A stretch of DNA of 64,000 bases from an uncultured Candidatus Saccharibacteria bacterium. Lineage in GTDB: Bacteria; Patescibacteriota; Minisyncoccia; Phycocordibacterales; UBA918. Below are positions 12,362 to 28,777 of this stretch, in pieces. A program made the translations under genes and the position numbers. Location of the stretch: positions 27,859 to 91,858 of the forward strand of contig CAYNQD010000002.1 in the NCBI GenBank assembly GCA_964399295.1, read 5' to 3'. The stretch's first letter is position 1. Each line of letters opens with the position of its first letter. Under the pieces are notes generated by a model, which was given only the letters and a program-made list of their open reading frames with translations, was not told the DNA's origin and did not search any database.

Positions 12362-13267
12362 ATGACGCAGAAATTTGATTCTAAAATTCTCGGGGCTTTT
12401 CTGATTGGTTTTGCTTTGGTTGCAGGCACGATTGTCATCAACAACCTGAATCGAACAGTTGTAGAATCTACAGACACAGACAGCACCGCTCTGGTGGCTA
12501 TCAATCAGGCTCCGCCACGAGTCTTGATTCCGGTAAAAGATTCAAACAACGACGGCCTTGAGGATTGGCAGGAGGAGTTTGTTAGCGCCAGCAAGATAGT
12601 ATTGTCTACCAGTTCGGAAGAATACACGCCTCCCGATACCGTTACCGGCCAATTGGGTACGGCCCTGATGCACAAGCTCCTATCTTCAAAGGTATATGCT
12701 CCGTTTGGTTCCAGTCCGGATCAAATCGTTGATGATTTGGTAAAAAACCTAAGCGCGCACGGCTCTGATAAAATCTATAACACCAGAGATATCACCATCA
12801 CTGATGACACTTCAAAAGAGGCGATACGTGTTTATGGCAATGCCTTAGCCTTAGCTATTTTAAACAACGGAATTGAGGGTACGGATAGCGAGCTATTCAT
12901 TTTGCAAAGAATCATTCACAATAATGATGCGGAGGGTATAGAAAGACTGGTGTTATTGGCAAAAATGTATCAAGACACCCGTGACGACACTATAAAAATA
13001 CCGGTACCAAGAACTTTCACCAAACAACACCTTGACCTAATCAACGTCTACAACGCTCTTTACGTAGACGTTGATTATATGTCAAAACTAACCGAAGATC
13101 CGGCTTTGTCCTTAATCAGAATTAAACGCTATGAAGACGACGCCAAAGGCTTATCTTTAGCCTTGCAAAATATATACCGTTCATTAGAACCACACACCGA
13201 TGCTTTTTCAATCGACGATCCGGCTGTTTTTTTTGTTAATTTTAGCCCTGATTTTAATAATCAATAA
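12362..13267 (+). CDS. hypothetical N-terminally membrane-anchored/secreted protein (first gene of the T4SS-like cluster)
   Basis: 301 aa. N-terminal TM/signal (ILGAFLIGFALVAGTIVI). A candidate -10 (tataat) lies just upstream at about 12345. Confidence 0.5.
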   Translation: MTQKFDSKILGAFLIGFALVAGTIVINNLNRTVVESTDTDSTALVAINQAPPRVLIPVKDSNNDGLEDWQEEFVSASKIVLSTSSEEYTPPDTVTGQLGTALMHKLLSSKVYAPFGSSPDQIVDDLVKNLSAHGSDKIYNTRDITITDDTSKEAIRVYGNALALAILNNGIEGTDSELFILQRIIHNNDAEGIERLVLLAKMYQDTRDDTIKIPVPRTFTKQHLDLINVYNALYVDVDYMSKLTEDPALSLIRIKRYEDDAKGLSLALQNIYRSLEPHTDAFSIDDPAVFFVNFSPDFNNQ

Positions 13268-13271
13268 AAAT

Positions 13272-14807
13272 ATGAGCACTTTCCATACATTTTTACAAAA
13301 AGGTTTAGTCTTTCTTTTTAGTTTGTGTTTGATGTTTGTTAGCGTTTATGTTCCGCAGCAACACCTTAATAACGTCCCCTCAGCTGAAGCTGGACTTGAC
13401 GCTACAGAACCAACCCAGATTAGAAATGAAATTCAACTTTTAGCCGTAAACGCTTGGACCTACGCGACTTCCATAGCCGCCATTGCTTTGGAATTAAAAG
13501 AATCTTGGCTTGACGGCATTGCCTGGGCGTTTGCTAAGGGCGTTATTGCCACCATGACGCGTAGCATTGTCAGATGGATAAATTCCGGCTTTCAAGGATC
13601 GCCGGCTTTTGTCCAGGATTTGCAAGCGCATTTACTGCGCGTGGGAGATATGATTTTTAATGAATTCGTGCATGAGATTGGCGCGGCCCCTTATGTTTGT
13701 GGACCTTTCCGCTTAAATTTACAAATAGCTTTGAGTACCAGCTACCAACACTACAACCGAGCCGGCTATCCCAGGGGCACTCCGAGGTGTACGATAAGCG
13801 GAGTAATGGCGAACTTGGAAAACTTTGTCAATGGTGCCTTTACTTCAGATGGCTGGGATCAATGGTTTAGAGTCACTACTCAGCCCAATGTCTACACTCC
13901 TTATGGTAGTTTTTTGACACTCCGGGGCGAGGCCGCTCTTAGGATAGGCAGTACCCAGCACAACGCCGGAGCGATTTTGAATTATGGTGATGGCTTTATG
14001 TCAAATGTTGTTTGTAGCACCATATCTGCTGTTGGATTTGATAAAGAACGATGTCTGGTCTCGACTCCTGGACACGTTATTAGTGAAACTTTAACCCACC
14101 ATTTGGGAGCTGGTTTGGAAAGTTGGATCGCGGCTGACGAAATCAATGAGATTATCGGGTCTTTGCTAGGACAATTGGCAAATAGGGCTTTGAGCGGAGC
14201 AGCCGGACTGTTGGGCTTGTCTGGGGGAACTGGTTATACCGATACGAGCTATGCTGGTTTTGATCCTCTTAATCAACGCCCATTCGTGGAACAATTGGTG
14301 TTTGAGCAAGAAGGTACTTCTAGCAGCACTCTTATCGCTGAAGCCACAAGAATGGTGCAGGCCGCTACCGCCATGGAGCAAGAATATCTTGACGTAGCAA
14401 ATGATTATAAAGCAGTGTTAATGTTTAGGAATACACCTGCTTCCATAGCAGCAGCGGCTCATATAACTAATTCCATAGAAAACCCGAATTTCCCTGGATC
14501 ACCAGCTTACAACTTGGCTAGAATAAATGCTCTTGTTGATGGAGTTAATAACGAAACTATCAGTTATGAACATGCTATCCAGGAGTTCAACACTCTTAAT
14601 CTCCATACTTCAAATGACCTCTCCTTAAAGGAAGGTGAGTGGAATCTGCTGCTTAGAGATTTGATATCAGACCAAATAGCCAGAGAAGGAGGTGTCGGTG
14701 CTACATCAAATATAGCGGACCTTAATCAGGTACAGCTGCTTGTCAATAGCGGCAGAAACAGAGAGGCGGTTAAGTTATTTAGCACCTTAATACCTTTCCT
14801 AAACTAA
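13272..14807 (+). CDS. hypothetical large secreted/membrane protein (T4SS-like cluster)
   Basis: 512 aa from the ATG at 13272, in frame with the track ORF. N-terminal hydrophobic signal (LVFLFSLCLMFVSVYV), a second hydrophobic helix, and several Cys. Confidence 0.5.
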   Translation: MSTFHTFLQKGLVFLFSLCLMFVSVYVPQQHLNNVPSAEAGLDATEPTQIRNEIQLLAVNAWTYATSIAAIALELKESWLDGIAWAFAKGVIATMTRSIVRWINSGFQGSPAFVQDLQAHLLRVGDMIFNEFVHEIGAAPYVCGPFRLNLQIALSTSYQHYNRAGYPRGTPRCTISGVMANLENFVNGAFTSDGWDQWFRVTTQPNVYTPYGSFLTLRGEAALRIGSTQHNAGAILNYGDGFMSNVVCSTISAVGFDKERCLVSTPGHVISETLTHHLGAGLESWIAADEINEIIGSLLGQLANRALSGAAGLLGLSGGTGYTDTSYAGFDPLNQRPFVEQLVFEQEGTSSSTLIAEATRMVQAATAMEQEYLDVANDYKAVLMFRNTPASIAAAAHITNSIENPNFPGSPAYNLARINALVDGVNNETISYEHAIQEFNTLNLHTSNDLSLKEGEWNLLLRDLISDQIAREGGVGATSNIADLNQVQLLVNSGRNREAVKLFSTLIPFLN

Positions 14808-14830
14808 CGCAAAATAAAGACTTACCAAAT

Positions 14831-17056
14831 ATGCTTAAAATAATACTAAGAAACAAAACTACATATTCACTACTACTGTCGGTAGCCTGTCTCTTGGTGT
14901 TGTTTATACCCATGCTGGCTTTAGGACAAGCAGACGGTGGTGCTGGAAAAAAAACCGAGGACGATTCCCTGATTCAGAATCTGCTTTGGGGACTTGTGAA
15001 TGGGGTTTTTGGTTTTCTCGTTTGGTTGTCCGGCAAGCTACTGGATACCGCCGTGACAACTTTTGTAATCGGCTTTGGAGAATTGTACAACACCAGTGGC
15101 TTAGGTTTTGCGGTAGACAATCTCTGGCGAGTGGTGCGTGACATCTTTAACCTTACCTTTATATTTGGCCTTGTTTACATCGGATTCAAGATGATTCTAA
15201 ACAGCGGAGACACCAACGCCAAAAGGTTGTTAATTAACATTATTATGGCTGCCCTTTTGGTAAACTTCAGTCTGTTCTTTACCAAGTTTATAATTGAATT
15301 CTCAAACGTGGCCGCCACTCAAGTGGCCAGTGCCTTTGATGCTGGCGGTGGGGATTATCAGGTATCTGGTAAGTTTATGAACGCAATGGGTTTATCCAGT
15401 ATATTTGCCGATGACGGCAGTATGACTAACGCTTTTGGCACCAACACCGGAAATGGCTATACTTATATTTTCGGAACTTTATTCTTATTTATTGTGACGG
15501 CCTTTGCCTTTTTTGCCGGCGGTATACTTCTGATGATTAGATTTGCCGTTCTAAATCTATACATGATTTTGTCTCCGATTATGTTTTTAGGTTGGGTATT
15601 TCCTTCTCTGGCCAGCTATTCGGCTACGTATTGGCGCAGTTTCCTAGGCCGTGCTTTCTATGCGCCCGCTTATCTACTGATGCTGTATTTCTGTTTCGTT
15701 GTTTTCAATGAATTTGCTGCTGTAACTAGGTCTGGCAGTCTTTCCAAAGTCCTAACCGATGCCAATAGCGCGCAGTCAGATTTTGCCTCTACCATTCCTT
15801 ATTTTGCTATCATGATTATATTCCTTCTGGCTTCAATTGTGATTGGCCAGAAAATGGGTGCTGAAGGTGGAGCTTACATGGTATCAATGGGTAAAGGCGC
15901 GGCCAGCCGTGGCGGAAGAATGTTAAAGCGAACTGCCGGTGCAGCTACTTTTGGCCTAACAGCCAAAGCTGGACGACAAGTGATTGGAGGCACAGCCAAT
16001 AAGATAGCTGAAAGTAAAGGTCTTCGAGAATGGGCTGCAAAAAGTAAAGCTGGAGAGACACTTCTTAAAGGTACTCGTAGGGTAGCAGATTCTTCTTTTG
16101 ACGCTAGAAAGATTGGTGGCATGGGAACCGCTCTTGGAATTGGTGAGGGAGCCAAGAGTGGTTACGCTACTCAAATTAAAGAGCAGAATAAGGCCGATGA
16201 AGAATTCTCCAATTCACTAACCAGAAAAACTAGGGGCTACGATGGCAAACTTACCGAAGACGCAGCCAAAGCGGTAGATAAAGCCTTAACTGAAGATAAA
16301 GAATTGCAAGGACTAAGAGATTTGCAGGGAACTGCCGATAAGAATATAGAAAACCTCACCACCAAGAAAACAGACACGGAGAAAGAAAAGGCGGAAAAAG
16401 AGACTGCGATAGCAGAAGCTAAGGAAGCTGGGAATACAGAAGCGCAAGAAAATCTTGAAAAAGAACTGTCTCATCTTGATAAAACCCTAACCAATCTAGA
16501 CAAAGACATAGCTAACGCTAATCAAATAAAAGACACTACCGCGAAAAATATTGAAAATCAAGAAAAGAAAATCAGTACCAAAGCCGAGGCGGACTACAAA
16601 TACGCCGATCGAATCGCTTTCCGAGAGCATCGTCGTGAGATAGCTGAATCCTGGAGAAATAGAGGAACGCTTGGAGCCGGCATTGCTGGAGGAGCAGCTG
16701 GAGTAGGAGCAGCCGGTTTGATTGCCAGCACCGCCGGATTAGCCGCTTTACCACTGGCTTTGACAATACTTTCCGGCGCAGCCGTTGGAGGAGCAGCTGG
16801 AGTAGGAGCAGCCAGGGGCTACGCCGAAAGAAACGACCGAAGCGCCATGAACCTCATGCAAAGATACGGACGACAAGGAGAAGATATCGCCAAAGTAGAC
16901 AAGGCCAACAATGACTTAAAAGTCATCCATGACAGGCTAAAAGCTATAGGAGGAGAAGGGGACAAAAAACAAACTTCATCTGACTCCGACAAGCAAACTC
17001 CACCCCCGCCACCACCAAATCCAGGTACAGGTACGGCCTCTACACCAAACCCATAA
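14831..17056 (+). CDS. VirB6/TrbL-like polytopic membrane protein with extended C-terminus
   Basis: 741 aa. About 8 predicted TM helices in the first 340 aa. Then a coiled-coil region (aa 440-570), a Gly/Ala-rich hydrophobic stretch (GIAGGAAGVGAAGLIASTAGLAALPLALTILSGAAVGGAAGVGAA) and a C-terminal PPPPPPNPGTGT tail. Sits three genes upstream of the VirB4-like gene. Confidence 0.45.
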   Translation: MLKIILRNKTTYSLLLSVACLLVLFIPMLALGQADGGAGKKTEDDSLIQNLLWGLVNGVFGFLVWLSGKLLDTAVTTFVIGFGELYNTSGLGFAVDNLWRVVRDIFNLTFIFGLVYIGFKMILNSGDTNAKRLLINIIMAALLVNFSLFFTKFIIEFSNVAATQVASAFDAGGGDYQVSGKFMNAMGLSSIFADDGSMTNAFGTNTGNGYTYIFGTLFLFIVTAFAFFAGGILLMIRFAVLNLYMILSPIMFLGWVFPSLASYSATYWRSFLGRAFYAPAYLLMLYFCFVVFNEFAAVTRSGSLSKVLTDANSAQSDFASTIPYFAIMIIFLLASIVIGQKMGAEGGAYMVSMGKGAASRGGRMLKRTAGAATFGLTAKAGRQVIGGTANKIAESKGLREWAAKSKAGETLLKGTRRVADSSFDARKIGGMGTALGIGEGAKSGYATQIKEQNKADEEFSNSLTRKTRGYDGKLTEDAAKAVDKALTEDKELQGLRDLQGTADKNIENLTTKKTDTEKEKAEKETAIAEAKEAGNTEAQENLEKELSHLDKTLTNLDKDIANANQIKDTTAKNIENQEKKISTKAEADYKYADRIAFREHRREIAESWRNRGTLGAGIAGGAAGVGAAGLIASTAGLAALPLALTILSGAAVGGAAGVGAARGYAERNDRSAMNLMQRYGRQGEDIAKVDKANNDLKVIHDRLKAIGGEGDKKQTSSDSDKQTPPPPPPNPGTGTASTPNP

Positions 17057-17065
17057 TAGATAAAT

Positions 17066-17575
17066 ATGCCAAATCAACAATTACAAGAAAGAATACAAGA
17101 ACTTGAACCTCTCTATCGAGAATACATCTTGAGTGATGATATCGCGGAAATTGCCAAGGAATTTTCGGAGGTGCACGGGTTTGATGAGACAAACGCCAAC
17201 CTGCTTGAGAATGGAATATTCTTATTTATGCTGTTTTTCATAAATAAGAAAACTTTAGTGGACTTTATTGTCAAGAATTGTAGATTAGAACAACACGAAG
17301 CGGCGGTTTTGGTGGAGGCTATCATCATGTCTGTACCAGACAATATTCGCGCCATGCAAACAAAGACCAGTCTGGTGATTTTCTCAGAAACTGATCCCAA
17401 AGATACTACCGAAAAGGAGATACTAGAGACCGAAACCTCAATCGAGTACTTAAATTCCATACGCACCATGCCGGCAGATAAACAGCAAAATAATGAAACT
17501 ACTCACACCAGCACTCAATCCGCCATCTTGAATGACAGACCACCATTCTCAAACACATCACAGCCAAAACAGTAA
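17066..17575 (+). CDS. hypothetical small acidic protein (T4SS-like cluster)
   Basis: 169 aa, no TM, acidic. Confidence 0.4.
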   Translation: MPNQQLQERIQELEPLYREYILSDDIAEIAKEFSEVHGFDETNANLLENGIFLFMLFFINKKTLVDFIVKNCRLEQHEAAVLVEAIIMSVPDNIRAMQTKTSLVIFSETDPKDTTEKEILETETSIEYLNSIRTMPADKQQNNETTHTSTQSAILNDRPPFSNTSQPKQ

Positions 17576-17621
17576 TCTTATTGTTTGCAACAAATAGTTG
17601 CCTATACACAAAATAATAATC

Positions 17622-17650
17622 ACTTTTCGTGCTAAAAGTGTATAATGTAT
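17622..17650 (+). promoter_or_regulatory. candidate extended -10 promoter (tgtataatg) for the VirB3-like/VirB4 genes
   Basis: TGnTATAAT at 17638-17646, about 20 nt upstream of the ATG at 17668. Confidence 0.35.
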
Positions 17651-17667
17651 TTTGTACGCAGACAAAT

Positions 17668-18078
17668 ATGAGATTTGAAGTTCCACAGTTTATTGATATT
17701 GAAGATAAGATTTTTGGGCCTCTTACTTGGCGTCAATTCCTGTACCTAGGAGGCGGAGTAGGTATGGGCGTGGTTTTATTTTTCATAAATAAATTATTGT
17801 TTCTTTTTGTTGGACTGCCGTTGGCTATTTTGGCCGGCGCGCTGGCTTTCTACCCTGTAAACAACCGGCCGTTCTCTTTTTTTCTGGAAGCGATATTCAA
17901 TTACCTAGGCAGCGATAAGCTGTACCTATGGAAACAAAAAGATGAAATTATCCATAAAAACCTTTTTACCCCCAGCACGGTAGGCGGAAATCCTCCAGAA
18001 AGCCCCAGCCGAACAATCAAAAACACCGCCTCGCTCGCTCGTCGCCTGGAATTAGAAGCTATTCAAAAAAAAGAATAA
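17668..18078 (+). CDS. PrgI/VirB3-like small membrane protein
   Basis: 136 aa from the ATG at 17668. Short cytoplasmic N-terminus then two hydrophobic helices (LYLGGGVGMGVVLFFINKLLFLFVGLPLAILAGALAFY). Directly upstream of the VirB4-like gene, as for VirB3-VirB4 pairs. Confidence 0.5.
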   Translation: MRFEVPQFIDIEDKIFGPLTWRQFLYLGGGVGMGVVLFFINKLLFLFVGLPLAILAGALAFYPVNNRPFSFFLEAIFNYLGSDKLYLWKQKDEIIHKNLFTPSTVGGNPPESPSRTIKNTASLARRLELEAIQKKE

Positions 18079-18079
18079 T

Positions 18080-18724
18080 ATGCCAAAATCAACCGCTGCC
18101 ACCCAACAATTTGTCGGTATTCGTGACATTAAAGATGGAATAGTAATTCTGAAATCAGGGCAAATGTGTACCATTCTTTTGGCTTCTTCCGTCAACTTCG
18201 CGCTCAAATCAATTGATGAACAGCAGGCGATTTTGCAGCAATTCCAGACTTTTCTTAACACTCTGGATTTTTCATTGCAGATTTACATTCAATCCCGACG
18301 CTTAAATATCGAGCCCTACATTGAGCTTCTAAAGACCAGAGAGGCCCACCAAGACAATGACCTTATGAGGATTCAGCTTCGCGAATACATTGAATTCATT
18401 CAAACGTTTACCAATGAGGTCGATATCATGAGCAAGAACTTTTTTGTGGTGGTCCCGTATTCTCCGATACCAGTTAATATCACCAAAGGAATAACGTCAC
18501 TGTTTTCCACCGCTCCCAAAACAAACACGCCAACGGAAATGCGTTTTGAAGAGCAGCGCACTCAGCTGGAGCAGAGAGTGGCCGTGGTCGAACAAGGATT
18601 GGGGCGGGTGGGGGTACGCACCACGCCGCTGAAGAACGATGATTTGGTGGAATTATTTTATCATACCTACAACCCGATTGACCCCGCAGGCTCAGCTCCC
18701 ACCTTTAACAAAGCGGACTTCTAA
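18080..18724 (+). CDS. VirB4-like ATPase, N-terminal domain ORF
   Basis: 214 aa. FVGIRDIKDGIVILKSGQMCTILLASSVNFALKSIDEQQAILQQFQTFLNTLDFSLQIYIQS matches the conserved N-terminal domain of Gram-positive-type VirB4/TraC/PrgJ-family ATPases. Ends 10 nt before the next ORF. Confidence 0.65.
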   Translation: MPKSTAATQQFVGIRDIKDGIVILKSGQMCTILLASSVNFALKSIDEQQAILQQFQTFLNTLDFSLQIYIQSRRLNIEPYIELLKTREAHQDNDLMRIQLREYIEFIQTFTNEVDIMSKNFFVVVPYSPIPVNITKGITSLFSTAPKTNTPTEMRFEEQRTQLEQRVAVVEQGLGRVGVRTTPLKNDDLVELFYHTYNPIDPAGSAPTFNKADF

Positions 18725-18734
18725 TACCAAAACC

Positions 18735-20525
18735 ATGAGCATATTTGACCAATTCAAACCGAATAACAACCAAACTCCAAAGATCAGCGATCAGCTCTTG
18801 ACTTTGGTCGACGTGGTGGCTCCTTCCGCCGTCAACATCACTCCACGAGGAATAAATTTAAGCGGGGTTGAGGCTAGAGTACTCTACGCTGTATCTTATC
18901 CTCACTATTTGAATGCCAGCTGGATGGAACCGGTCTTAAACATAGACAAGGAAATTGACGTTTCCATATACATTCACCCCATCGACACTGCTGAGAGCTT
19001 GAAAAAATTTCAAAAAAAAGTAGCTGAGGTGCAAAGCCAGATCAACATAAAAGCTGAGAAAGGCGAGGTTCGTGACCCGCAACTGGAAGCAGCCTACCGC
19101 AACCTGGAAGAACTGCGCGACCGACTACAACAAGCGGAAGAAAAACTTTTTAACGTCGGCTTTTACATTGCCATTTATGGTAATGATGAAAAAACTCTAA
19201 ATAAAGCTGAAAATGATATCAAGGGTATCTTGGACTCCAGACTGATTTACCTTAAGCCGGCTTTGTTTCAACAAGAGCCGGGTATGCAAAGTATTTTCCC
19301 CACGGCTACAGATAAGCTCTTGGTTCACAGCAAATTCAACTCCTCACCGCTATCAAGCTTCTTTCCTTTTACTTCTTTTGACCTCACTTCCGATACCGGT
19401 ATTCTTTATGGTATCAACCGCCACAATTCTTCCTTGGTTTTATTTGATCGTTTTTCTTTGACCAACTACAACTCAGTTACCTTCGCCACTTCCGGTGCTG
19501 GAAAATCTTACGCTCTGAAGCTCGAGATTTTGCGTTCGCTGATGTTTGGTACGGAAGTAATCGTACTTGATCCAGAACGAGAATATGAATATTTGGCCGA
19601 AGCTACCGGTGGACGTTTCTTTAATATTTCTCTGTCTTCAGATCACCACATCAATCCCTTTGACTTGCCACCGCCACAACCAGATGAAGACCCGAGAGAT
19701 GTGCTTCGGACTCATATTATTGAATTGATTGGTTTATTTAGACTGATGCTTGGGGGATTGGCGCCGGAAGAAGAGACTATTCTCGATCTCGCCATTCAGG
19801 AAACTTACGCCTTGCGTGACATCACCGGCGACGCTGATTTTTCAGAACAAGAGCCGCCGCTACTTTCAGACTTTGAGATGGTACTGGCCGGTATGGACGG
19901 CAGCAATTCACTGATTACCCGCCTGCAAAAGTACACTTCCGGTACCTGGTCTGGCTTTATGAACAAGCCCACCAACGTCGATATCAATCAAAAATTCGTG
20001 GTTTTCTCTTTGCGCGACATGGAAGACGAGCTAAAGACCATCGCCATGTACATCATCACCAACTTCATTTGGGGTTCTGTGCGCCGACGCATGACCAAAA
20101 GACTGTTAGTCATTGATGAGGCTTGGTGGATGATGAAATCAGAAGATACGGCTTCATTTTTATTCAGTCTAGCCAAGCGCGGTCGAAAATATTACTTGGG
20201 CATAGCCACCATCACTCAAGACGTGGACGATTTCTTACGCTCTCCCTACGGTGTACCAATGATTACCAACTCCTCAATTCAATTCCTAATGAAACAATCC
20301 GCCACCGCCATTGATAATATTCAAAAAACCTTCAACCTCACCGATGAAGAAAAGTTTTTGCTGCTGGAATCAAACGTAGGGGAGGGGATATTTTTTGCCG
20401 GCCTAAAACACGTAGCCGTAAAAGTAATCGCTTCCTACACTGAAGACCAAATCATCACCTCCGATCCATCACAACTTCTGCAAATCAAGAAAGCCAGAGA
20501 AGAATTGCAACTGTCCCGCTCATAA
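18735..20525 (+). CDS. VirB4/TrbE/CagE-like T4SS ATPase, ATPase domain ORF
   Basis: 596 aa from the ATG at 18735. Walker A FATSGAGKSYALK, Walker B LLVIDEAWWMM, and DPEREYEYL/GIATITQD motifs typical of VirB4-family ATPases. Confidence 0.75.
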   Translation: MSIFDQFKPNNNQTPKISDQLLTLVDVVAPSAVNITPRGINLSGVEARVLYAVSYPHYLNASWMEPVLNIDKEIDVSIYIHPIDTAESLKKFQKKVAEVQSQINIKAEKGEVRDPQLEAAYRNLEELRDRLQQAEEKLFNVGFYIAIYGNDEKTLNKAENDIKGILDSRLIYLKPALFQQEPGMQSIFPTATDKLLVHSKFNSSPLSSFFPFTSFDLTSDTGILYGINRHNSSLVLFDRFSLTNYNSVTFATSGAGKSYALKLEILRSLMFGTEVIVLDPEREYEYLAEATGGRFFNISLSSDHHINPFDLPPPQPDEDPRDVLRTHIIELIGLFRLMLGGLAPEEETILDLAIQETYALRDITGDADFSEQEPPLLSDFEMVLAGMDGSNSLITRLQKYTSGTWSGFMNKPTNVDINQKFVVFSLRDMEDELKTIAMYIITNFIWGSVRRRMTKRLLVIDEAWWMMKSEDTASFLFSLAKRGRKYYLGIATITQDVDDFLRSPYGVPMITNSSIQFLMKQSATAIDNIQKTFNLTDEEKFLLLESNVGEGIFFAGLKHVAVKVIASYTEDQIITSDPSQLLQIKKAREELQLSRS

Positions 20526-20538
20526 ACACCTATAATGT

Positions 20539-21375
20539 ATGGCTACTTATCCAAATTCAAATATACGCAACGTTAAAAAAGTTGACCGCCAAAGAATCAA
20601 TGATGATTGGGAATATTTGGAGGAGCCGGCTTTATCCCACAATCCCAGCACGGATGAACTGTTTAACAAGACCTACAAAAGCAGTGGTTTGCAAGCCACC
20701 ACCTCTTCCAATATCAGAAATCCTAAAAAAATTAACTCGGAGGCAGGAAACGATGCTACAACAAACACCTACAAAGCAAAATCATCTTACGGTCAAACAT
20801 ATAATGATTTTGATAGTTATGACGACGATTATGGACCGAAAGCAAAAGATAAAAAAGTAAAGATACCTGGCGGAAGAACTTCACCAATTCTTAGACTGAA
20901 AGCCAATATAGAAGCTTCCCGGATTATATTTTGGGTGGGTCAAAAATATATAATGCTCCAACTTCCTTTCGCGATTTTATCGATAATCGGTCTGGGAGCA
21001 TCACTTTACCTGTCGGGAGATTTTAGTAATTCCGGCAATTCCACGAGTACTGGTTTGGTTGATAGTGCCGTGAGCGCTGTGGTTGGTGCCACCGACATCG
21101 TCGTTAGGGGAGTAGCCAATTTCTTTGGAGCTGGTTATTTAACTTTTGCGCTATTTGCCATTCCTCACATGTTTGTTCTCTCCCTAGGAATTTTTGTCCT
21201 TATGACTGTTTATATTCAGTTTACAATGAAATCAATAAAACCCCTATCCGGCGACCACGCCAGCGCAAAGATAGGAACTTTCCTCCTAGCGATACTAGGC
21301 TTCGCCATTCCCATATTAAATTTATTTCCCATTATTTTATTCTGGATATTCACAGTTAGGAAATACCCAAAATAG
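20539..21375 (+). CDS. hypothetical membrane protein (disordered N-terminus, four C-terminal TM helices)
   Basis: 278 aa. The hydrophobic C-terminal half was read directly. Confidence 0.45.
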   Translation: MATYPNSNIRNVKKVDRQRINDDWEYLEEPALSHNPSTDELFNKTYKSSGLQATTSSNIRNPKKINSEAGNDATTNTYKAKSSYGQTYNDFDSYDDDYGPKAKDKKVKIPGGRTSPILRLKANIEASRIIFWVGQKYIMLQLPFAILSIIGLGASLYLSGDFSNSGNSTSTGLVDSAVSAVVGATDIVVRGVANFFGAGYLTFALFAIPHMFVLSLGIFVLMTVYIQFTMKSIKPLSGDHASAKIGTFLLAILGFAIPILNLFPIILFWIFTVRKYPK

Positions 21376-21422
21376 GTGGTTAAGGTGGTTTTTTTGGATT
21401 TTAGTTTGTTATTATAATAACC

Positions 21423-22379
21423 ATGAGATACTTTATATTAATTTTAGTCGCATTAATGCCTTTAGATTTTTCTAGTGCCCAGATTAGTTCTGAGCCCGGA
21501 CAAATGGGAGTGAGTATAGTTTTGGAAAACGACAATATTAAACCCTTCTCCGCCAACACCGCTTCTTTGGACAATTACTCTCTATCACTTCAAGTTACCA
21601 ACATCAGCTGGAAAATTGACGGCCGAACAATCCCTGAAGCCCAAAATCAAAGGTCTGTTGAATTCACTTCTAAAGACGTCGGTCAGACTACCACTATTGA
21701 AGTGACAGTTGAAACTTTTGAAAAACTCAACTTCTCAGCCAAAAGGATCGTTACACCCATCTATTTGGACATAATATTTGAACCCCAAACCAAAACCCCA
21801 AGTTTTTACAAAGGTCGAGCATTGCCTAGTATTTTTAGCACCGTAAATTTAACCGCCTTGGTCAACGGCACTCCAGACAATGCTAATAATTACATTTACA
21901 ACTGGTCACTAAATGACACCAATATCACCGGCGGTGCTTTGCGAGGAAAGTATAAAGTATCAACCGAAGTACCGGCCGGCTACCAAAACGTCATTGTCCT
22001 GTCTGTCAGCACTCTTGATGGCATACCAGTCGCCAGTCGCAGCTTGGCTCTTAGTTCCGTGGAGCCAAAATTATTATTTTATGAAACCAACACTCTGCAC
22101 GGAATCAAAAACATCCCCATCAGAGATTCCCTAAACCTAATCGGCAACAGCGTTAGCGTCAAAGCTGAGCCTTATTACATAGATATAAACACCTACAATA
22201 AGCCCGGGCTTTTGGAGTGGAAAGTTGATGGCATCAGAAGCCCGAGCAGCGGAAACAATCCTTACGAAGTAACGTTGTCTAAGCAAGGACTAAACGGAGT
22301 ATCTAATGTTAATTTTCACGTCCGAAATTTAAACAACTTTATACAAGGAACCCAAGGTAGCTTTAAGGTAAATTTTTAA
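21423..22379 (+). CDS. hypothetical secreted protein
   Basis: 318 aa. Signal peptide MRYFILILVALMPLDFSSAQ. Beta-rich, with two internally similar segments. Confidence 0.45.
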   Translation: MRYFILILVALMPLDFSSAQISSEPGQMGVSIVLENDNIKPFSANTASLDNYSLSLQVTNISWKIDGRTIPEAQNQRSVEFTSKDVGQTTTIEVTVETFEKLNFSAKRIVTPIYLDIIFEPQTKTPSFYKGRALPSIFSTVNLTALVNGTPDNANNYIYNWSLNDTNITGGALRGKYKVSTEVPAGYQNVIVLSVSTLDGIPVASRSLALSSVEPKLLFYETNTLHGIKNIPIRDSLNLIGNSVSVKAEPYYIDINTYNKPGLLEWKVDGIRSPSSGNNPYEVTLSKQGLNGVSNVNFHVRNLNNFIQGTQGSFKVNF

Positions 22380-22385
22380 AAATAT

Positions 22386-23564
22386 ATGAATAAGCCAATT
22401 TTTATCATTATCGGAGCAATCATTATTTTTATATTGGTTTTGGTTTGGGCGTATTTAATGTTTTTTGGCACCCCCAAAAACATGCAGGATATTTTTGCTG
22501 ATTTAAATTTTCAAGAAAACTTAGAGGATGTCTCTATTAATGTTGTTACTGAGGATACTGTCGTTAATGTAAACAGGCCAGCCCTACGCCAACTAACCAC
22601 CAGACTGGTAGCGGGCTTTCGTGAAATAGACGCACCACCAACCGCCGATTTACCAACAATATACTACACAGAAATGGGAACCGGACATATTTACGCCATC
22701 AATCTTGAGTCTGGCGAAGAAACGAGAATATCAGGTACCACGGTTGTCGGTGTCAACAGCGCTTCCATTTCACCAAAAGGTGATTACGTGGCTTACGGCA
22801 TTGCCAATAGCAGCAAAAACATTAAGCTACTACTTGGAGAAATTAGCACCAGCAGTGATTTGGTGGCGGAAGAAATCAGCACTACTATTGATAAATTTTG
22901 GATCAATGACAACGGTAATGAATTGCTTTACACCACCAGGGAAGAAATTGGTTTGGTGGCATATTCATACAACCTAGCCAATTCCACCAAGAGAAATGTC
23001 TTTTCATTACCTTATCACGAAGCGTTGATACAGTGGGGAAGCACGGCCACGGCAGCGCATTATGTTTATCCAAAGCCAGCTTATTTATTTGAGGGTTATT
23101 TATCCGAAATAACCGGCAATAAAATTAAGCGTTTGCCGGTTGATGGCTACGGATTTTCCGGTTTGGCCAACAAAGATATCGTGGCGTACAGCACTTTGGA
23201 CAGACAGGATGTTAAGAGCTACATCTACAACAAAACCAACAACACCCACAACCCATTCCCTCTACAAATTAATTTTATGCCAGAAAAGTGTATTATCTCT
23301 AAAAATAACAACAACCTAATCTGCGCCTACGACACCACCGCCAAAATGGCTGAATTCCCCGACAGCTGGTATCAGGGGGTGACTAGTTTTAAAGATTCGT
23401 TGTGGCTGGTTTCTGGAGATGCTCTGTCGGCCCAATTCCTAGTGGACACTTTCACCGCCAGCAATCGCGAGATTGATATTACCGATTTAAGCATTGGCAG
23501 CAGCGAACGAGCGGTTTATTTTATAAACAAAAACGATAACACTCTTTGGATGTATGAATTATAA
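22386..23564 (+). CDS. hypothetical secreted/signal-anchored protein
   Basis: 392 aa. N-terminal TM IFIIIGAIIIFILVLVWAYLMFF. Confidence 0.45.
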   Translation: MNKPIFIIIGAIIIFILVLVWAYLMFFGTPKNMQDIFADLNFQENLEDVSINVVTEDTVVNVNRPALRQLTTRLVAGFREIDAPPTADLPTIYYTEMGTGHIYAINLESGEETRISGTTVVGVNSASISPKGDYVAYGIANSSKNIKLLLGEISTSSDLVAEEISTTIDKFWINDNGNELLYTTREEIGLVAYSYNLANSTKRNVFSLPYHEALIQWGSTATAAHYVYPKPAYLFEGYLSEITGNKIKRLPVDGYGFSGLANKDIVAYSTLDRQDVKSYIYNKTNNTHNPFPLQINFMPEKCIISKNNNNLICAYDTTAKMAEFPDSWYQGVTSFKDSLWLVSGDALSAQFLVDTFTASNREIDITDLSIGSSERAVYFINKNDNTLWMYEL

Positions 23565-24261
23565 AACTTTACTACTATTTATAATTTTAGTCGCTCCGCT
23601 GTCGGCTTTGGCTCAGGGTTATGTGTCACTAGTTTCTATTCCTGGAGTTAGCGATCCGACAGGTGGGGGTTTTAACGACTACATAAACGCCCTCTACGTG
23701 CTGTCTATCAGTATTGCCGCCTTATTGGCTGTTATCAAGATAATCATCGCCGGCGTAAAGTGGATGTTGTCTGATGTCGTGACCAGCAAGCAAGAAGCTA
23801 AAAGTGACATCTGGGGAGCCACCATCGGCTTACTAGTCGTTATCTCGGCGGTTTTGGTACTAAATGTAATCAACCCACAGCTAATAGAGTCAGATATCGT
23901 ATTTACCAAGCCACACGAATTCCAATCACAGTCACCTACATTTAGCAAAACTCGGCCTGCTCTGAGCCCTGGTGATACAGAGACAGTTATGAAACTCGAA
24001 GACCATCAGAAGTGTGTACATGATATACAGGGAGAATGGTACGTAGAAACAGATGGTCTTAATAATTACCAATATTGGTGTATTAAAAAAGCCAATAAAG
24101 CTTTCTTGAACCCTGAGCAGTTTGCTTGCAACGCCACAACTCAGACCTGTGACTCTAACGACAAGTTTGCCTGTGAAAGTAATTTCAACGGTATATGGGA
24201 ATATCCTTATATAACTGATATGGGAACTGCACAATACTATAGGGCTAAGTGTGTTTATTAA
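23554..24261 (+). CDS. VirB2/TrbC-topology pilin-like protein with cysteine-rich C-terminal domain
   Basis: 235 aa. Signal peptide (..PLSALAQG) then two hydrophobic helices separated by a charged loop (..LLAVIKIIIAGVKWMLSDVVTSKQEAKSDIWGATIGLLVVISAVLVLNVINP), which is the classic T4SS pilin topology. C-terminal about 110 aa contains 8 Cys. Confidence 0.45.
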   Translation: MNYKTLLLFIILVAPLSALAQGYVSLVSIPGVSDPTGGGFNDYINALYVLSISIAALLAVIKIIIAGVKWMLSDVVTSKQEAKSDIWGATIGLLVVISAVLVLNVINPQLIESDIVFTKPHEFQSQSPTFSKTRPALSPGDTETVMKLEDHQKCVHDIQGEWYVETDGLNNYQYWCIKKANKAFLNPEQFACNATTQTCDSNDKFACESNFNGIWEYPYITDMGTAQYYRAKCVY

Positions 24262-24352: not shown

Positions 24353-25087
24353 CTAACGATGATGTTTTTTGATGTGTAGTTCTTGCAAGATGGCCACGAT
24401 ATTACTGACAAAAAAGTAAAGGGCGATGGCGGCGGAAATGAAATAAGAAACAAAGAAAATTATCACCGGCATAACATAACGCATTTGCAATTGCATGTTA
24501 CGCATAAAGTCTTCCTTTAAGTCCGGAGCCTTATTTGGATCTCTGGGCGGTAAAGCCGGCATAGCGAGCTTTACCTGATAATACTGAGTCACTCCAGCCA
24601 ACAGCGCCAAAAAAACACTCTTGCCGGAAATATCAATCAAACCAAGAAAATCCATACTCACCATACCAGGTGCGGCCAAGAATGAGTACAAGAGGGCAGT
24701 GTTGATTTCCGGCAAAGCCACACCGCCGCCACTATAAACCGAAAAGTACAGCGCGATGATGATTGGTATTTGCAACAACATCAAAAATATAGTGGAAAAA
24801 GGCTTGATGCCGGATTCGCGATAAAGCTGCATCATTGCTAAGGCTTGTTGTTCGCGGTTGTCTTTGTGGGTTTCTTTTATTTCTTTTAGCTTTGGCTCGA
24901 TCTCACGCATCACACGCTGCGTGCGTGCGGACTTTATGGAAAGAGGGAGCAATATCAGCTTCAATACCACCACCATGGCAATGATAGCCAGACCAACATC
25001 TCCACCAGGAATAACTTCGATAAAAAATATCAACCCGTTATAAACCGGGTCGAAAAAAAATGTATGCCAAATATAATTCATGTCCAC
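24353..25087 (-). CDS. yidC: membrane protein insertase YidC (short form)
   Basis: 244 aa, 5 TM, conserved YidC/Oxa1 core. Canonical position downstream of rnpA. Confidence 0.8.
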   Translation of the reverse strand: MDMNYIWHTFFFDPVYNGLIFFIEVIPGGDVGLAIIAMVVVLKLILLPLSIKSARTQRVMREIEPKLKEIKETHKDNREQQALAMMQLYRESGIKPFSTIFLMLLQIPIIIALYFSVYSGGGVALPEINTALLYSFLAAPGMVSMDFLGLIDISGKSVFLALLAGVTQYYQVKLAMPALPPRDPNKAPDLKEDFMRNMQLQMRYVMPVIIFFVSYFISAAIALYFFVSNIVAILQELHIKKHHR

Positions 25088-27679: not shown

Positions 27680-28777
27680 ATGGAAATAATAATCCCTCAT
27701 CCCCAGCTAATTAAAACTTTGGAATTGATCAGTCGTATCAGCACCAAGCATGTCACCTTGCCGGTTCTTCAATGTGCCCTAATTACTGCCACTGAAAGTG
27801 GTCTACTCATAAAAGCCACTAATTTGGAACTAAGCATTGAAGTAACTGTTCCTGCAAAAATAAATGAAACCGGAACCATTGCCGTGCCAATGACAACTTT
27901 TCTGCAAAGCATCCAGTATATAAATCAACCGGAAATTACCTTGCGCGACGAAGATGGTGTTTTGCTAATTGAATCAAAACAAACCAATACTTCAATCAAA
28001 TCAATTCCGTTTGAGGAATTTCCCAATATCTATCATTTGGAAAGCGAGGGGGTTAAGGTTAATCGGTCTTTGTTTGCTTTGGGTATAAAGACTTCCGCTT
28101 TCGCGGCTTCGCAATCTTCTATTAAGCCTGAGCTCGGCAGTGTTTATGTGCAGCAGAAAAAAGAACACTCTCTAACCTTTGTTTCTACGGACTCTTTTCG
28201 GTTGATGGAAAAGCAGGTGCCACAAAAAGGCGTAGTCTTAGAACATTCGTTTTTGGTGCCGCAAAAGAATGCTATTGAGTTGGCGCGGGTTTGTGATTTG
28301 TTGACTGAAGATCCTATTTTGACCATCACCGACAATCAGTGTGCTTTGAATTTTGTGAATGAAGGGGTTTATGTTACTTCCAGATTGGTGTCCGGTTCTT
28401 TTCCTGACTACGAACAAATAATCCCCAAAGAATACGTCACCCACGCTACGGTCTTAAAAAGTGATTTGTTGAACGCTTTTAAAAAGACTTCAGTTTTCTT
28501 GAATAAGTTTCAACAAGTATCTTTATCTTTAACTGACAATAATATTATTATCGCCTCGCAAAATAATGAAGTCGGACATATTACTGACACTGTGAAGGCA
28601 GTGATTGAGGGTGAAGAGTTGTCTTTGAATTTTAATCAGCAGTACCTGATCGAACCCTTGTCACACATAACCGACGACAGTGTGGTTTTGCATTTTGCCG
28701 GTATCGGTAGACCTTTGGTAATCAATGGGGTTTCTGATAATACTTTGCGTTATTTGGTGATGCCGATGAATCGTTAG
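27680..28777 (+). CDS. dnaN: DNA polymerase III beta sliding clamp
   Basis: 365 aa, three-domain clamp pattern, follows dnaA. Confidence 0.88.
   Translation: MEIIIPHPQLIKTLELISRISTKHVTLPVLQCALITATESGLLIKATNLELSIEVTVPAKINETGTIAVPMTTFLQSIQYINQPEITLRDEDGVLLIESKQTNTSIKSIPFEEFPNIYHLESEGVKVNRSLFALGIKTSAFAASQSSIKPELGSVYVQQKKEHSLTFVSTDSFRLMEKQVPQKGVVLEHSFLVPQKNAIELARVCDLLTEDPILTITDNQCALNFVNEGVYVTSRLVSGSFPDYEQIIPKEYVTHATVLKSDLLNAFKKTSVFLNKFQQVSLSLTDNNIIIASQNNEVGHITDTVKAVIEGEELSLNFNQQYLIEPLSHITDDSVVLHFAGIGRPLVINGVSDNTLRYLVMPMNR

Follow-up and report, generated by a model that had tools for sequence, protein, structure and literature searches.

The T4SS ATPase VirB4 is made as one polypeptide in R388 (TrwK), in F (TraC) and in the CD1110 family of Firmicutes. 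In some conjugative systems VirB3–VirB4 fusion proteins are known, which draw in fused form on three modules, PrgI/VirB3, an N-terminal subdomain and the ATPase. The N-terminal domains of R388 VirB4 contact VirB3 and VirB8 and join dimers (PMC12857230). In the Staphylococcus conjugative plasmids pGO1 and pSK41, of an MPF-FATA subclass, a VirB3-like gene is followed by one for a protein of ~220 aa, TrsD (TraD), and then by one for an ATPase of ~600–670 aa, TrsE (TraE). In pSK41 a 135-aa gene, annotated as hypothetical, occupies the trsC position, trsD encodes 227 aa, and a gap of 14 nt separates it from the gene for the 672-aa TrsE.

Of the T4SS components in Patescibacteria, those homologous to TrsD are the most abundant. 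A 2025 survey found 2,272 of them, 1,664 of which adjoin virB4, and noted a remote resemblance to the N-terminus of VirB4 (Quinonero-Coronel et al. 2025, PMC12102498). Guglielmini et al. (2014), cited for the homology between TrsD and VirB4, do not mention TrsD by name in their main text, and the observation is therefore credited here to the survey. The TrsD homologue of Southlakia epibionticum is listed as essential, whilst the homologues of Gracilibacteria do not adjoin virB4, so that trsD-like genes need not travel with virB4; TrsD has no known function (PMC12102498).

The 64-kb stretch of DNA analysed here (the window) contains a prgI gene followed by two ORFs, ORF1 and ORF2 (Table 1). The gene order is that of pGO1 and pSK41, the gap between the two ORFs being 10 nt rather than the 14 nt of pSK41. 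The three modules that are joined in VirB3–VirB4 fusion proteins are thus all separate in the window, and the VirB4 that is one polypeptide in R388, F and the CD1110 family is here made as two. The pair is very probably a genuine and anciently fixed two-gene VirB4 ATPase of the chromosomal T4SS in a member of the Patescibacteria (class Paceibacteria, near Nomurabacteria), and its two products would rebuild the VirB3–VirB4 module. On this reading the first N-terminal subdomain of VirB4 comes from ORF1, and the remaining N-terminal region and the P-loop ATPase from ORF2. A natural split of this sort had been called unusual in the first-pass annotation of the locus. It is instead what Patescibacteria have as a rule, as do Gram-positive conjugation systems of the pGO1/pSK41 class, and was already contained in the survey (PMC12102498). 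The split is therefore ordinary for the lineage and of a known kind, the window being a typical example.

Table 1. Features of the T4SS cluster in the window
Feature	Coordinates	Strand	Basis
VirB6/TrbL-like polytopic membrane protein, 741 aa	14831..17056	+	PF19590 TrbL_3 (precomputed)
prgI: PrgI family (VirB3-like) small membrane protein, 149 aa	17629..18078	+	PF12666
ORF1: stand-alone TrsD-like / 'TraC-like' protein, 214 aa	18080..18724	+	PF26593 (tables), fold
Spacer from ORF1 TAA to ORF2 ATG, 10 nt, taccaaaacc	18725..18734	.	sequence
ORF2: VirB4-type T4SS ATPase without the first N-terminal subdomain, 596 aa	18735..20525	+	conju_CD1110
Possible VirB2-like pilin gene, 235 aa, at the cluster end (weak call)	23554..24261	+	NF045849

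Reading frames and protein families

The positions, lengths and intervening gap first given for the two ORFs, and their placement in different frames, were confirmed. ORF1 opens with an ATG 1 nt after the prgI stop and closes with a TAA at 18722–18724; ORF2, in frame +1 relative to ORF1, has an ATG of its own. A longer form of ORF2 in a mechanical ORF list, of 628 aa from an ATG at 18639 and overlapping ORF1 by 86 nt, was rejected. The true start is taken to be at 18735, since the conserved N-terminus of the relatives (M-G/S-I/L-F/L-D) aligns there and the upstream start is absent in most of them.

ORF1 belongs to a family which is far from a chance grouping, as it yielded 5210 homologues in a word-indexed search and 2179 representatives in an exhaustive one. 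The best 120 of the 5210 are without exception 203–216 aa long and each carry PF26593, a family named TraC-like which is also listed in precomputed tables for a protein identical to ORF1. Among the best 150 of the 2179 representatives, at 50% identity, only two are fused. Despite the entry in the precomputed tables, a local search of ORF1 against Pfam-A returned nothing with an E of 0.1 or lower, for which differing model versions may be responsible, and a full-text literature search for PF26593 gave no match. Amongst NCBIfam models, ORF1 matched VirB4_plasma (positions 102–245, E 2e-9), conju_CD1110 (positions 2–101, E 9e-6) and the TrsD/TraD family NF041427 (E 1.5e-6), the last with 28.2 bits, under its cut-off of 200 bits. 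ORF1 is a homologue of TrsD/TraD lying outside the narrow Staphylococcus/Enterococcus family NF041427. In position and size it agrees with TrsD-like proteins, which are of ~200–230 aa and are encoded between a VirB3-like gene and a VirB4-type ATPase gene. The pSK41 TrsD aligns over its whole length with the ORF1 family profile (hhalign probability 86%, E 5e-6), and TrsE is collinear with ORF2 from the N-termini (E 2e-36), at a distance reflected in identities of 20% for ORF1 and TrsD and 24% for ORF2 and TrsE.

The AlphaFold2 model of ORF1 (pLDDT 91) was compared with the PDB using Foldseek. The top 14 matches were R388 TrwK/VirB4 chains (E 2e-4 to 3e-3, probability 1.00, TM 0.5–0.62) and the next match had an E of 0.27, so that only TrwK/VirB4 was significant. 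The output does not give the TrwK residue range of the match; the part of TrwK predicted to have a fold like that of ORF1 is the N-terminal one. A profile search of PDB sequences returned no VirB4, but only a chance match (E 0.33), and the link between ORF1 and VirB4 consequently rests on the fold and the weak profile matches. ORF1 also aligns with residues 1–209 of P0152, a fused 797-aa VirB4, at 43% identity. ORF1 corresponds to the first N-terminal subdomain of VirB4. With a Kyte–Doolittle maximum of 1.48 and no transmembrane-like segment, it is predicted to be a soluble protein.

ORF2 scored 352.7 bits against the NCBIfam model NF045971 conju_CD1110 (cut-off 325), over positions 176–732 of 752, and matched VirB4_plasma over positions 275–892 of 894. 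In Pfam it matched PF19044 (P-loop_TraG; E 8e-27, 94.3 bits against a cut-off of 25.8), and also AAA_10 and DUF87. The Walker motifs are intact, with Walker A, SGAGKS, at aa 253–258 (nt 19491–19508) and Walker B, VIDEAW, at aa 459–464 (nt 20109–20126). The alignment with P0152 covers residues 232–796, at 55% identity. ORF2 lacks a complete N-terminal domain, beginning at conju_CD1110 position 176 or P0152 residue 232, and the absent region is ORF1: jointly the two ORFs span positions 2 to 732 of the 752 in the conju_CD1110 model. Some 240 non-ATPase residues nevertheless precede the P-loop domain of ORF2. The break in VirB4 lies within the N-terminal region, ~175–210 residues in, rather than where the N-terminal and ATPase domains meet.

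These comparisons bear on how the pair was first described. The recognition of VirB4 N-terminal sequence in ORF1, made from a stretch that is indeed present there (DGIVILKSGQMCTILLASSVNFALKSIDEQQAILQQFQTFLNTLDFSLQIYIQ), was right, the NCBIfam matches being weak, the fold clear and the alignment with P0152 concordant. The P-loop ATPase domain assigned to ORF2 is borne out by PF19044 and conju_CD1110. The description of the pair as an N-terminal domain ORF plus an ATPase ORF oversimplifies, as ORF1 provides only the first ~175–210 residues and ORF2 retains the ~240 that precede the ATPase.

Gene neighbourhood and arrangements of the modules

ORF2 is encoded alongside inner-membrane components of a T4SS, with prgI immediately upstream and the TrbL_3 gene further upstream in the same orientation. 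The prgI product matched PF12666 (PrgI) with an E of 1.7e-10 and 41.7 bits (cut-off 27), and contains a hydrophobic segment (Kyte–Doolittle 19-residue maximum 2.55). PF19590 is taken from a precomputed table for a gene identical to the TrbL_3 gene; local Pfam and NCBIfam scans of its product gave no significant match. The product of the possible pilin gene matched NF045849 (Mbov_0395 family pilin-like conjugal transfer protein) with an E of 1e-3, its 18.8 bits falling short of the required 40. The genes yidC, dnaA and dnaN lie within 0.1–3.5 kb of the end of the cluster. The T4SS described in Patescibacteria (PMC12102498) shares with this one the TrsD homologue next to virB4, a PrgI/VirB3 protein, a VirB6-like protein, a possible VirB2-like pilin and a chromosomal location near dnaA, and no substantive difference between the two is apparent. 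Systems of that clade are characterised as chromosomal, close to dnaA and lacking a relaxase. In pSK41, by contrast, the genes sit on a plasmid that is conjugative and also encodes a relaxase and a coupling protein, whilst the present cluster is chromosomal and adjoins dnaA. When the relaxase, coupling protein (T4CP) and CHAP hydrolase of pSK41 were used as tblastn queries, an insensitive probe, no match was found in the window.

The modules occur elsewhere in a range of fused and free forms. All three are free in the window, in pSK41 and in plasmids of the Bacillus group. PrgI is fused to the N-terminal subdomain in a 349-aa protein of an Embleya plasmid, and to both the subdomain and the ATPase in a 942-aa protein of a Vescimonas plasmid. 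The subdomain and the ATPase are joined in a C. sporogenes plasmid, and also in a 797-aa protein of three Colwellbacteria MAGs, which belong to the same clade as split forms. In haloarchaea the subdomain stands at the end of an otherwise unrelated protein of 1075 aa, and many stand-alone homologues of ORF1 have long disordered tails, bringing them to totals of up to 300–440 aa. In pCLJ of C. botulinum, compared with the 97%-identical C. sporogenes plasmid, 25 gapped positions break the collinear protein in a Lys-rich linker.

The junction and its explanations

The junction was compared across 35 loci, those of 34 related species and of the window, at identities of 32–82%; the closest relatives are MAGs of Nomurabacteria, Paceibacteria and Kaiserbacteria. 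All 35 have a separate ORF1 stop followed by an ORF2 ATG at the same place, so that the split whose presence in orthologous loci had been put forward as a check is found in every one of the 34 related species. The frame of ORF2 relative to ORF1 is 0, +1 and +2 at 12, 11 and 12 loci, respectively, the spacing ranges from −4 to +21 nt, the ORF1 stop codon is TAA at 25 loci, TAG at 6 and TGA at 4, and no slippery sequence is common to them. The order prgI–ORF1–ORF2 and its tight spacing are kept in the relatives. In fused relatives the junction corresponds to a protein linker (residues 210–231 of P0152), which is unconserved; whether it would be a conserved one had been raised as a check in the first-pass annotation. 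The frames, spacing and linker are documented here, the junction not being described in PMC12102498. In the window itself, inspection of the sequence revealed no homopolymer run at the junction, which is identical in four independent assemblies from four different SRA runs. In the two longer of these both genes are called in full, at 214 aa and 596 aa, and the prgI call is also present in independent assemblies. Purifying selection acts on both ORFs: pN is 0.12–0.25 for ORF1 and 0.07–0.13 for ORF2, against a pS of 0.77–0.92, which is saturated. The rate of evolution of ORF1 is about double that of ORF2.

Since the junction is conserved in every relative frame, is identical across assemblies and separates two ORFs under purifying selection, the split is taken to be genuine. 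Of the options first raised this one stands, whilst a frameshift or pseudogene and an assembly error are rejected on the evidence of the 34 species, the assemblies and the selection. The collinearity of ORF1 and ORF2 with fused VirB4, in different frames only 10 nt apart, would suit a single virB4 of ~810 aa, broken by a recent frameshift or indel or by an error of sequencing or assembly, and such breaks do exist in pCLJ and in ORF2 of locus L006. It is, however, exceedingly improbable that this locus is another, given that the stop and restart recur in all the other species in three relative frames, that at 12 of the loci no single-base indel could join the ORFs, and that ORF2 has its own conserved N-terminal motif. 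Programmed recoding, by ribosomal frameshifting or stop-codon read-through, could produce a fused VirB4 at least part of the time; the ORFs are very close, and at the 12 loci where they share a frame they are parted by a stop and one to seven codons. Recoding signals keep their position and frame, whereas here the frames are evenly spread, the ORFs may overlap by 4 nt or lie as much as 21 nt apart, TAA, TAG and TGA all serve as stops and ORF2 has its own ATG throughout. With neither frame nor spacing nor stop codon kept constant, recoding was rejected as very unlikely.

A further explanation accepts two genes but holds that ORF1, though derived from the VirB4 N-terminus, has become an accessory or regulatory T4SS protein in its own right and is not a mere stand-in for the subdomain missing from ORF2. 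The faster evolution of ORF1, the tailed stand-alone homologues, the haloarchaeal domain and the Gracilibacteria homologues away from virB4, for a protein without known function (PMC12102498), all favour such independence. It is nonetheless improbable, because the region missing from ORF2 is exactly what ORF1 provides, because fused forms occur in the same clade in Colwellbacteria, and because gene order and tight spacing are conserved.

A proposed two-chain VirB4 assembly

If the pair is a two-gene VirB4, prgI, ORF1 and ORF2, tightly packed at 1 nt and 10 nt apart, would be co-transcribed and probably translationally coupled. The coupling is suggested only by the spacing, as no Shine–Dalgarno-like motif is evident by eye in the 10-nt spacer. 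The two proteins may be expected to cooperate, ORF1 binding both ORF2 and the VirB3-like PrgI non-covalently at the membrane. Such an assembly would restore the VirB3–VirB4 anchoring module which elsewhere is a single or fused chain. The T4SS of Patescibacteria has been reported to be essential for epibiotic growth, and the ATPase that energises it would be made of two chains. The natural split and its fused variants thus offer a ready means of studying how VirB4 uses its N-terminal domain to anchor the ATPase to VirB3.

It is tempting, if rather unlikely, to see the linker after the first N-terminal subdomain as a place where genes have repeatedly been split and joined, each of the free and fused states described above occurring in nature, with the free subdomain as a detachable adaptor and the split as regulatory rather than neutral. 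If so, the timing of ATPase docking on the membrane channel could depend on how much of the subdomain is present or on how it binds.

In annotation, the pair is best given as a TrsD-like protein (VirB4 N-terminal subdomain) plus VirB4, neither flagged as a frameshifted pseudogene nor merged. At locus L006, the frameshift inside ORF2 falls at a run of nine A.

A VirB4-type ATPase and a separate N-terminal subdomain

Judged by its sequence, ORF2 is a VirB4-type ATPase. It matches the Pfam families P-loop_TraG (E 8e-27), AAA_10 and DUF87, its Walker A (SGAGKS, aa 253-258) and Walker B (VIDEAW, aa 459-464) motifs are intact, and it scores 352.7 bits against the NCBIfam model conju_CD1110 (cut-off 325), covering only positions 176-732 of 752. 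ORF1 matches positions 2-101 of this model (E 9e-6). In the Mycoplasma-type VirB4 model of NCBIfam (894 positions), ORF1 occupies 102-245 (E 2e-9) and ORF2 275-892. ORF1 matches the part missing from ORF2. A match of ORF1 to the NCBIfam TrsD/TraD family (E 1.5e-6) falls far under the family cut-off. The local Pfam-A scan gave no match for ORF1, in disagreement with precomputed tables, which list the identical protein under PF26593 ('TraC-like'), Pfam's entry for the family; many members of the ORF1 family carry the JGI label 'VirB4 component'.

Since a sequence-profile search of the PDB with ORF1 found no match, a comparison of folds was needed. From 86 diverse homologues, AlphaFold2 gave a confident model of ORF1 (pLDDT 91, pTM 0.81). 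When this model was compared with the PDB by Foldseek, each of the best 14 matches was a TrwK/VirB4 chain of the R388 type IV secretion system (T4SS; probability 1.00, TM 0.5-0.62). The first match of any other kind, at E 0.27, is noise. No transmembrane-like segment was found in ORF1. The first-pass annotation had recognised VirB4 N-terminal sequence in ORF1, where the peptide that it quoted is located, and this identification is borne out by the two VirB4-type model matches and by the fold.

The coordinates first proposed for both ORFs are also correct. A mechanical ORF list starts ORF2 at an upstream ATG, 18639; this was rejected because the conserved M-(G/S)-(I/L)-(F/L)-D N-terminus of the relatives aligns with 18735, and most of them lack an earlier start.

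Features of the window and of the comparison loci
Feature	Location	Strand	Remarks
Genes without family	13200-14807, 17066-17575, 20539-21375, 21423-22379, 22386-23564		five in cluster
TrbL_3 (VirB6-like) protein	14831-17056		upstream of PrgI gene
PrgI-family (VirB3-like) membrane protein	17629-18078		ends 1 nt upstream of ORF1
ORF1	18080-18724	+	ATG start, TAA stop, 214 aa
Spacer ORF1/ORF2	18725-18734		10 nt
ORF2	18735-20525	+	ATG at 18735, 596 aa, frame +1 relative to ORF1
Pilin-like match, weak	23554-24261		last of co-directional cluster
yidC	24353-25087	-
dnaA	25944-27350
dnaN	27680-28777
PrgI + subdomain	L037 3590-4639		Embleya plasmid, 349 aa
PrgI + subdomain + ATPase	L044 3135-5963		Vescimonas plasmid, 942 aa
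Subdomain + ATPase	L045 3360-5960		C. sporogenes plasmid, 866 aa; likewise Colwellbacteria
Subdomain at C-terminus of 1075-aa protein	L038 1523-4750		Salinibaculum (haloarchaeal) plasmid, beside DUF87 ATPase
P0152, fused relative			797 aa; in three Candidatus Colwellbacteria MAGs

A genuine split

The first-pass annotation left three explanations for the two reading frames: a genuine split, a frameshift or pseudogene, and an assembly error. It also proposed a look at orthologous loci. One genome per species was scanned, and this yielded 34 loci whose identity to ORF1 is 32-82%; they come from Paceibacteria, Kaiserbacteria and MAGs labelled Saccharibacteria or Parcubacteria. In all 34 a stop codon closes the ORF1 homologue at the corresponding place, and the homologue of ORF2 opens with its own ATG. 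With the window counted in (35 loci), the frame of ORF2 relative to ORF1 is 0, +1 and +2 in 12, 11 and 12 cases, the spacing ranges from 4 nt of overlap to a gap of 21 nt, and ORF1 ends in TAA (25), TAG (6) or TGA (4). A frameshift, a sequencing error or programmed recoding at the junction was rejected, as none would yield such evenly spread frames, variable spacing and mixed stops. Furthermore, in assemblies from four different sequencing runs the 214-aa protein recurs unchanged and the junction is identical. Against nine relatives tested, non-synonymous differences per site are 0.12-0.25 for ORF1 and 0.07-0.13 for ORF2, and synonymous sites are saturated (0.77-0.92); both ORFs are therefore under purifying selection. 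The split is genuine, and the pseudogene and assembly readings fall. All of the best 120 of 5210 ORF1 homologues are 203-216 aa long. When 1.84 billion cluster representatives were searched exhaustively, 2179 ORF1 relatives were found, and only two among the best 150 are fused to the ATPase.

How an error looks is shown by Parcubacteria bacterium OLB19 (JZEL01000020.1; L006 4925-4945), in which the ORF2 homologue is frameshifted at a run of nine A; tblastn recovers it as two pieces (query 1-95 and 90-595) whose frames differ. This break, which likely reflects either a sequencing error or true pseudogenization, differs from the split in the window in lying inside ORF2 and in a single genome.

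The expectation that a natural split would be unusual is wrong for this lineage. The arrangement is a typical member of a Patescibacteria system already described. Quinonero-Coronel et al. 2025 (PMC12102498) found the TrsD homologue to be the commonest T4SS component there (2,272, of which 1,664 are VirB4-associated) and list the Southlakia epibionticum homologue as essential. The staphylococcal conjugative plasmid pSK41 has the same gene order: a 135-aa gene (at the trsC position, annotated only as 'hypothetical'), trsD (227 aa), a 14-nt gap and the TrsE ATPase (672 aa). The ORF1 family profile aligns over the full length of pSK41 TrsD (hhalign probability 86%, E 5e-6), and ORF2 and TrsE are collinear, starting at their N-termini. 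What is added here is only a documentation of the junction and of how the fused and split architectures vary.

Position of the junction and its fusions

In the fused P0152, ORF1 aligns to residues 1-209 (43% identity) and residues 26-589 of ORF2 align to 232-796 (55%). The junction therefore falls in a linker of about 20 residues, which is unconserved. The fused relative P0208 has a Pro/Ala-rich linker of about 110 residues. Many stand-alone ORF1 homologues (P0189, P0226 and similar) reach 300-440 aa: their conserved domain of 200 residues is followed by a long low-complexity C-terminal tail in which Pro, Ala, Gln and Thr abound. ORF2 keeps about 240 residues before its P-loop domain, and in the Pfam TraC N-terminal model ORF1-type proteins cover positions 41-179, the start of ORF2-type proteins extending up to 371. 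The break does not coincide with the boundary between N-terminal domain and ATPase.

The ORF1-type subdomain also occurs fused to PrgI, to the ATPase or to both; the haloarchaeal 1075-aa protein has no Pfam match. C. botulinum pCLJ (L036 3860-6485) and the C. sporogenes locus are 97% identical, and their nucleotide alignment has gaps at 25 positions; pCLJ carries two genes (257 and 620 aa, 11-nt overlap) in place of one. The point at which the proteins diverge is a Lys-rich linker and coincides with the ancient split; the difference resembles a recent fission or fusion.

According to a review (PMC12857230), VirB4 in the R388 structure uses its N-terminal domains to link the protomers within each dimer; these domains are membrane-embedded and touch VirB3 and VirB8. 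These contacts, and the fusions that join the same parts in other systems, suggest that ORF1 bridges PrgI and ORF2 through non-covalent contacts. The tight gene spacing would keep production of the three proteins matched.

The surrounding gene cluster

The co-directional T4SS-like cluster (12362-24261) ends about 90 nt from yidC. Since yidC, dnaA and dnaN follow directly, it is chromosomal and beside the region of the likely replication origin. In this position it resembles the clusters of some Patescibacteria (PMC12102498). According to the same paper, clusters of this kind often lie near dnaA and usually lack a relaxase. Of the five family-less genes, the first four have no family match in Pfam or NCBIfam and the fifth (22386-23564) has none in NCBIfam; the sole match among them is a faint TolB beta-propeller in 22386-23564. 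Because the gene at 13200-14807 shares 68 nt with the ORF before it (12362-13267), it may in fact begin further downstream. The TrbL_3 protein has a long C-terminal extension past its membrane part, rich in Lys, Glu, Ala and Thr, with a coiled-coil-like look and the tail PPPPPPNPGTG.
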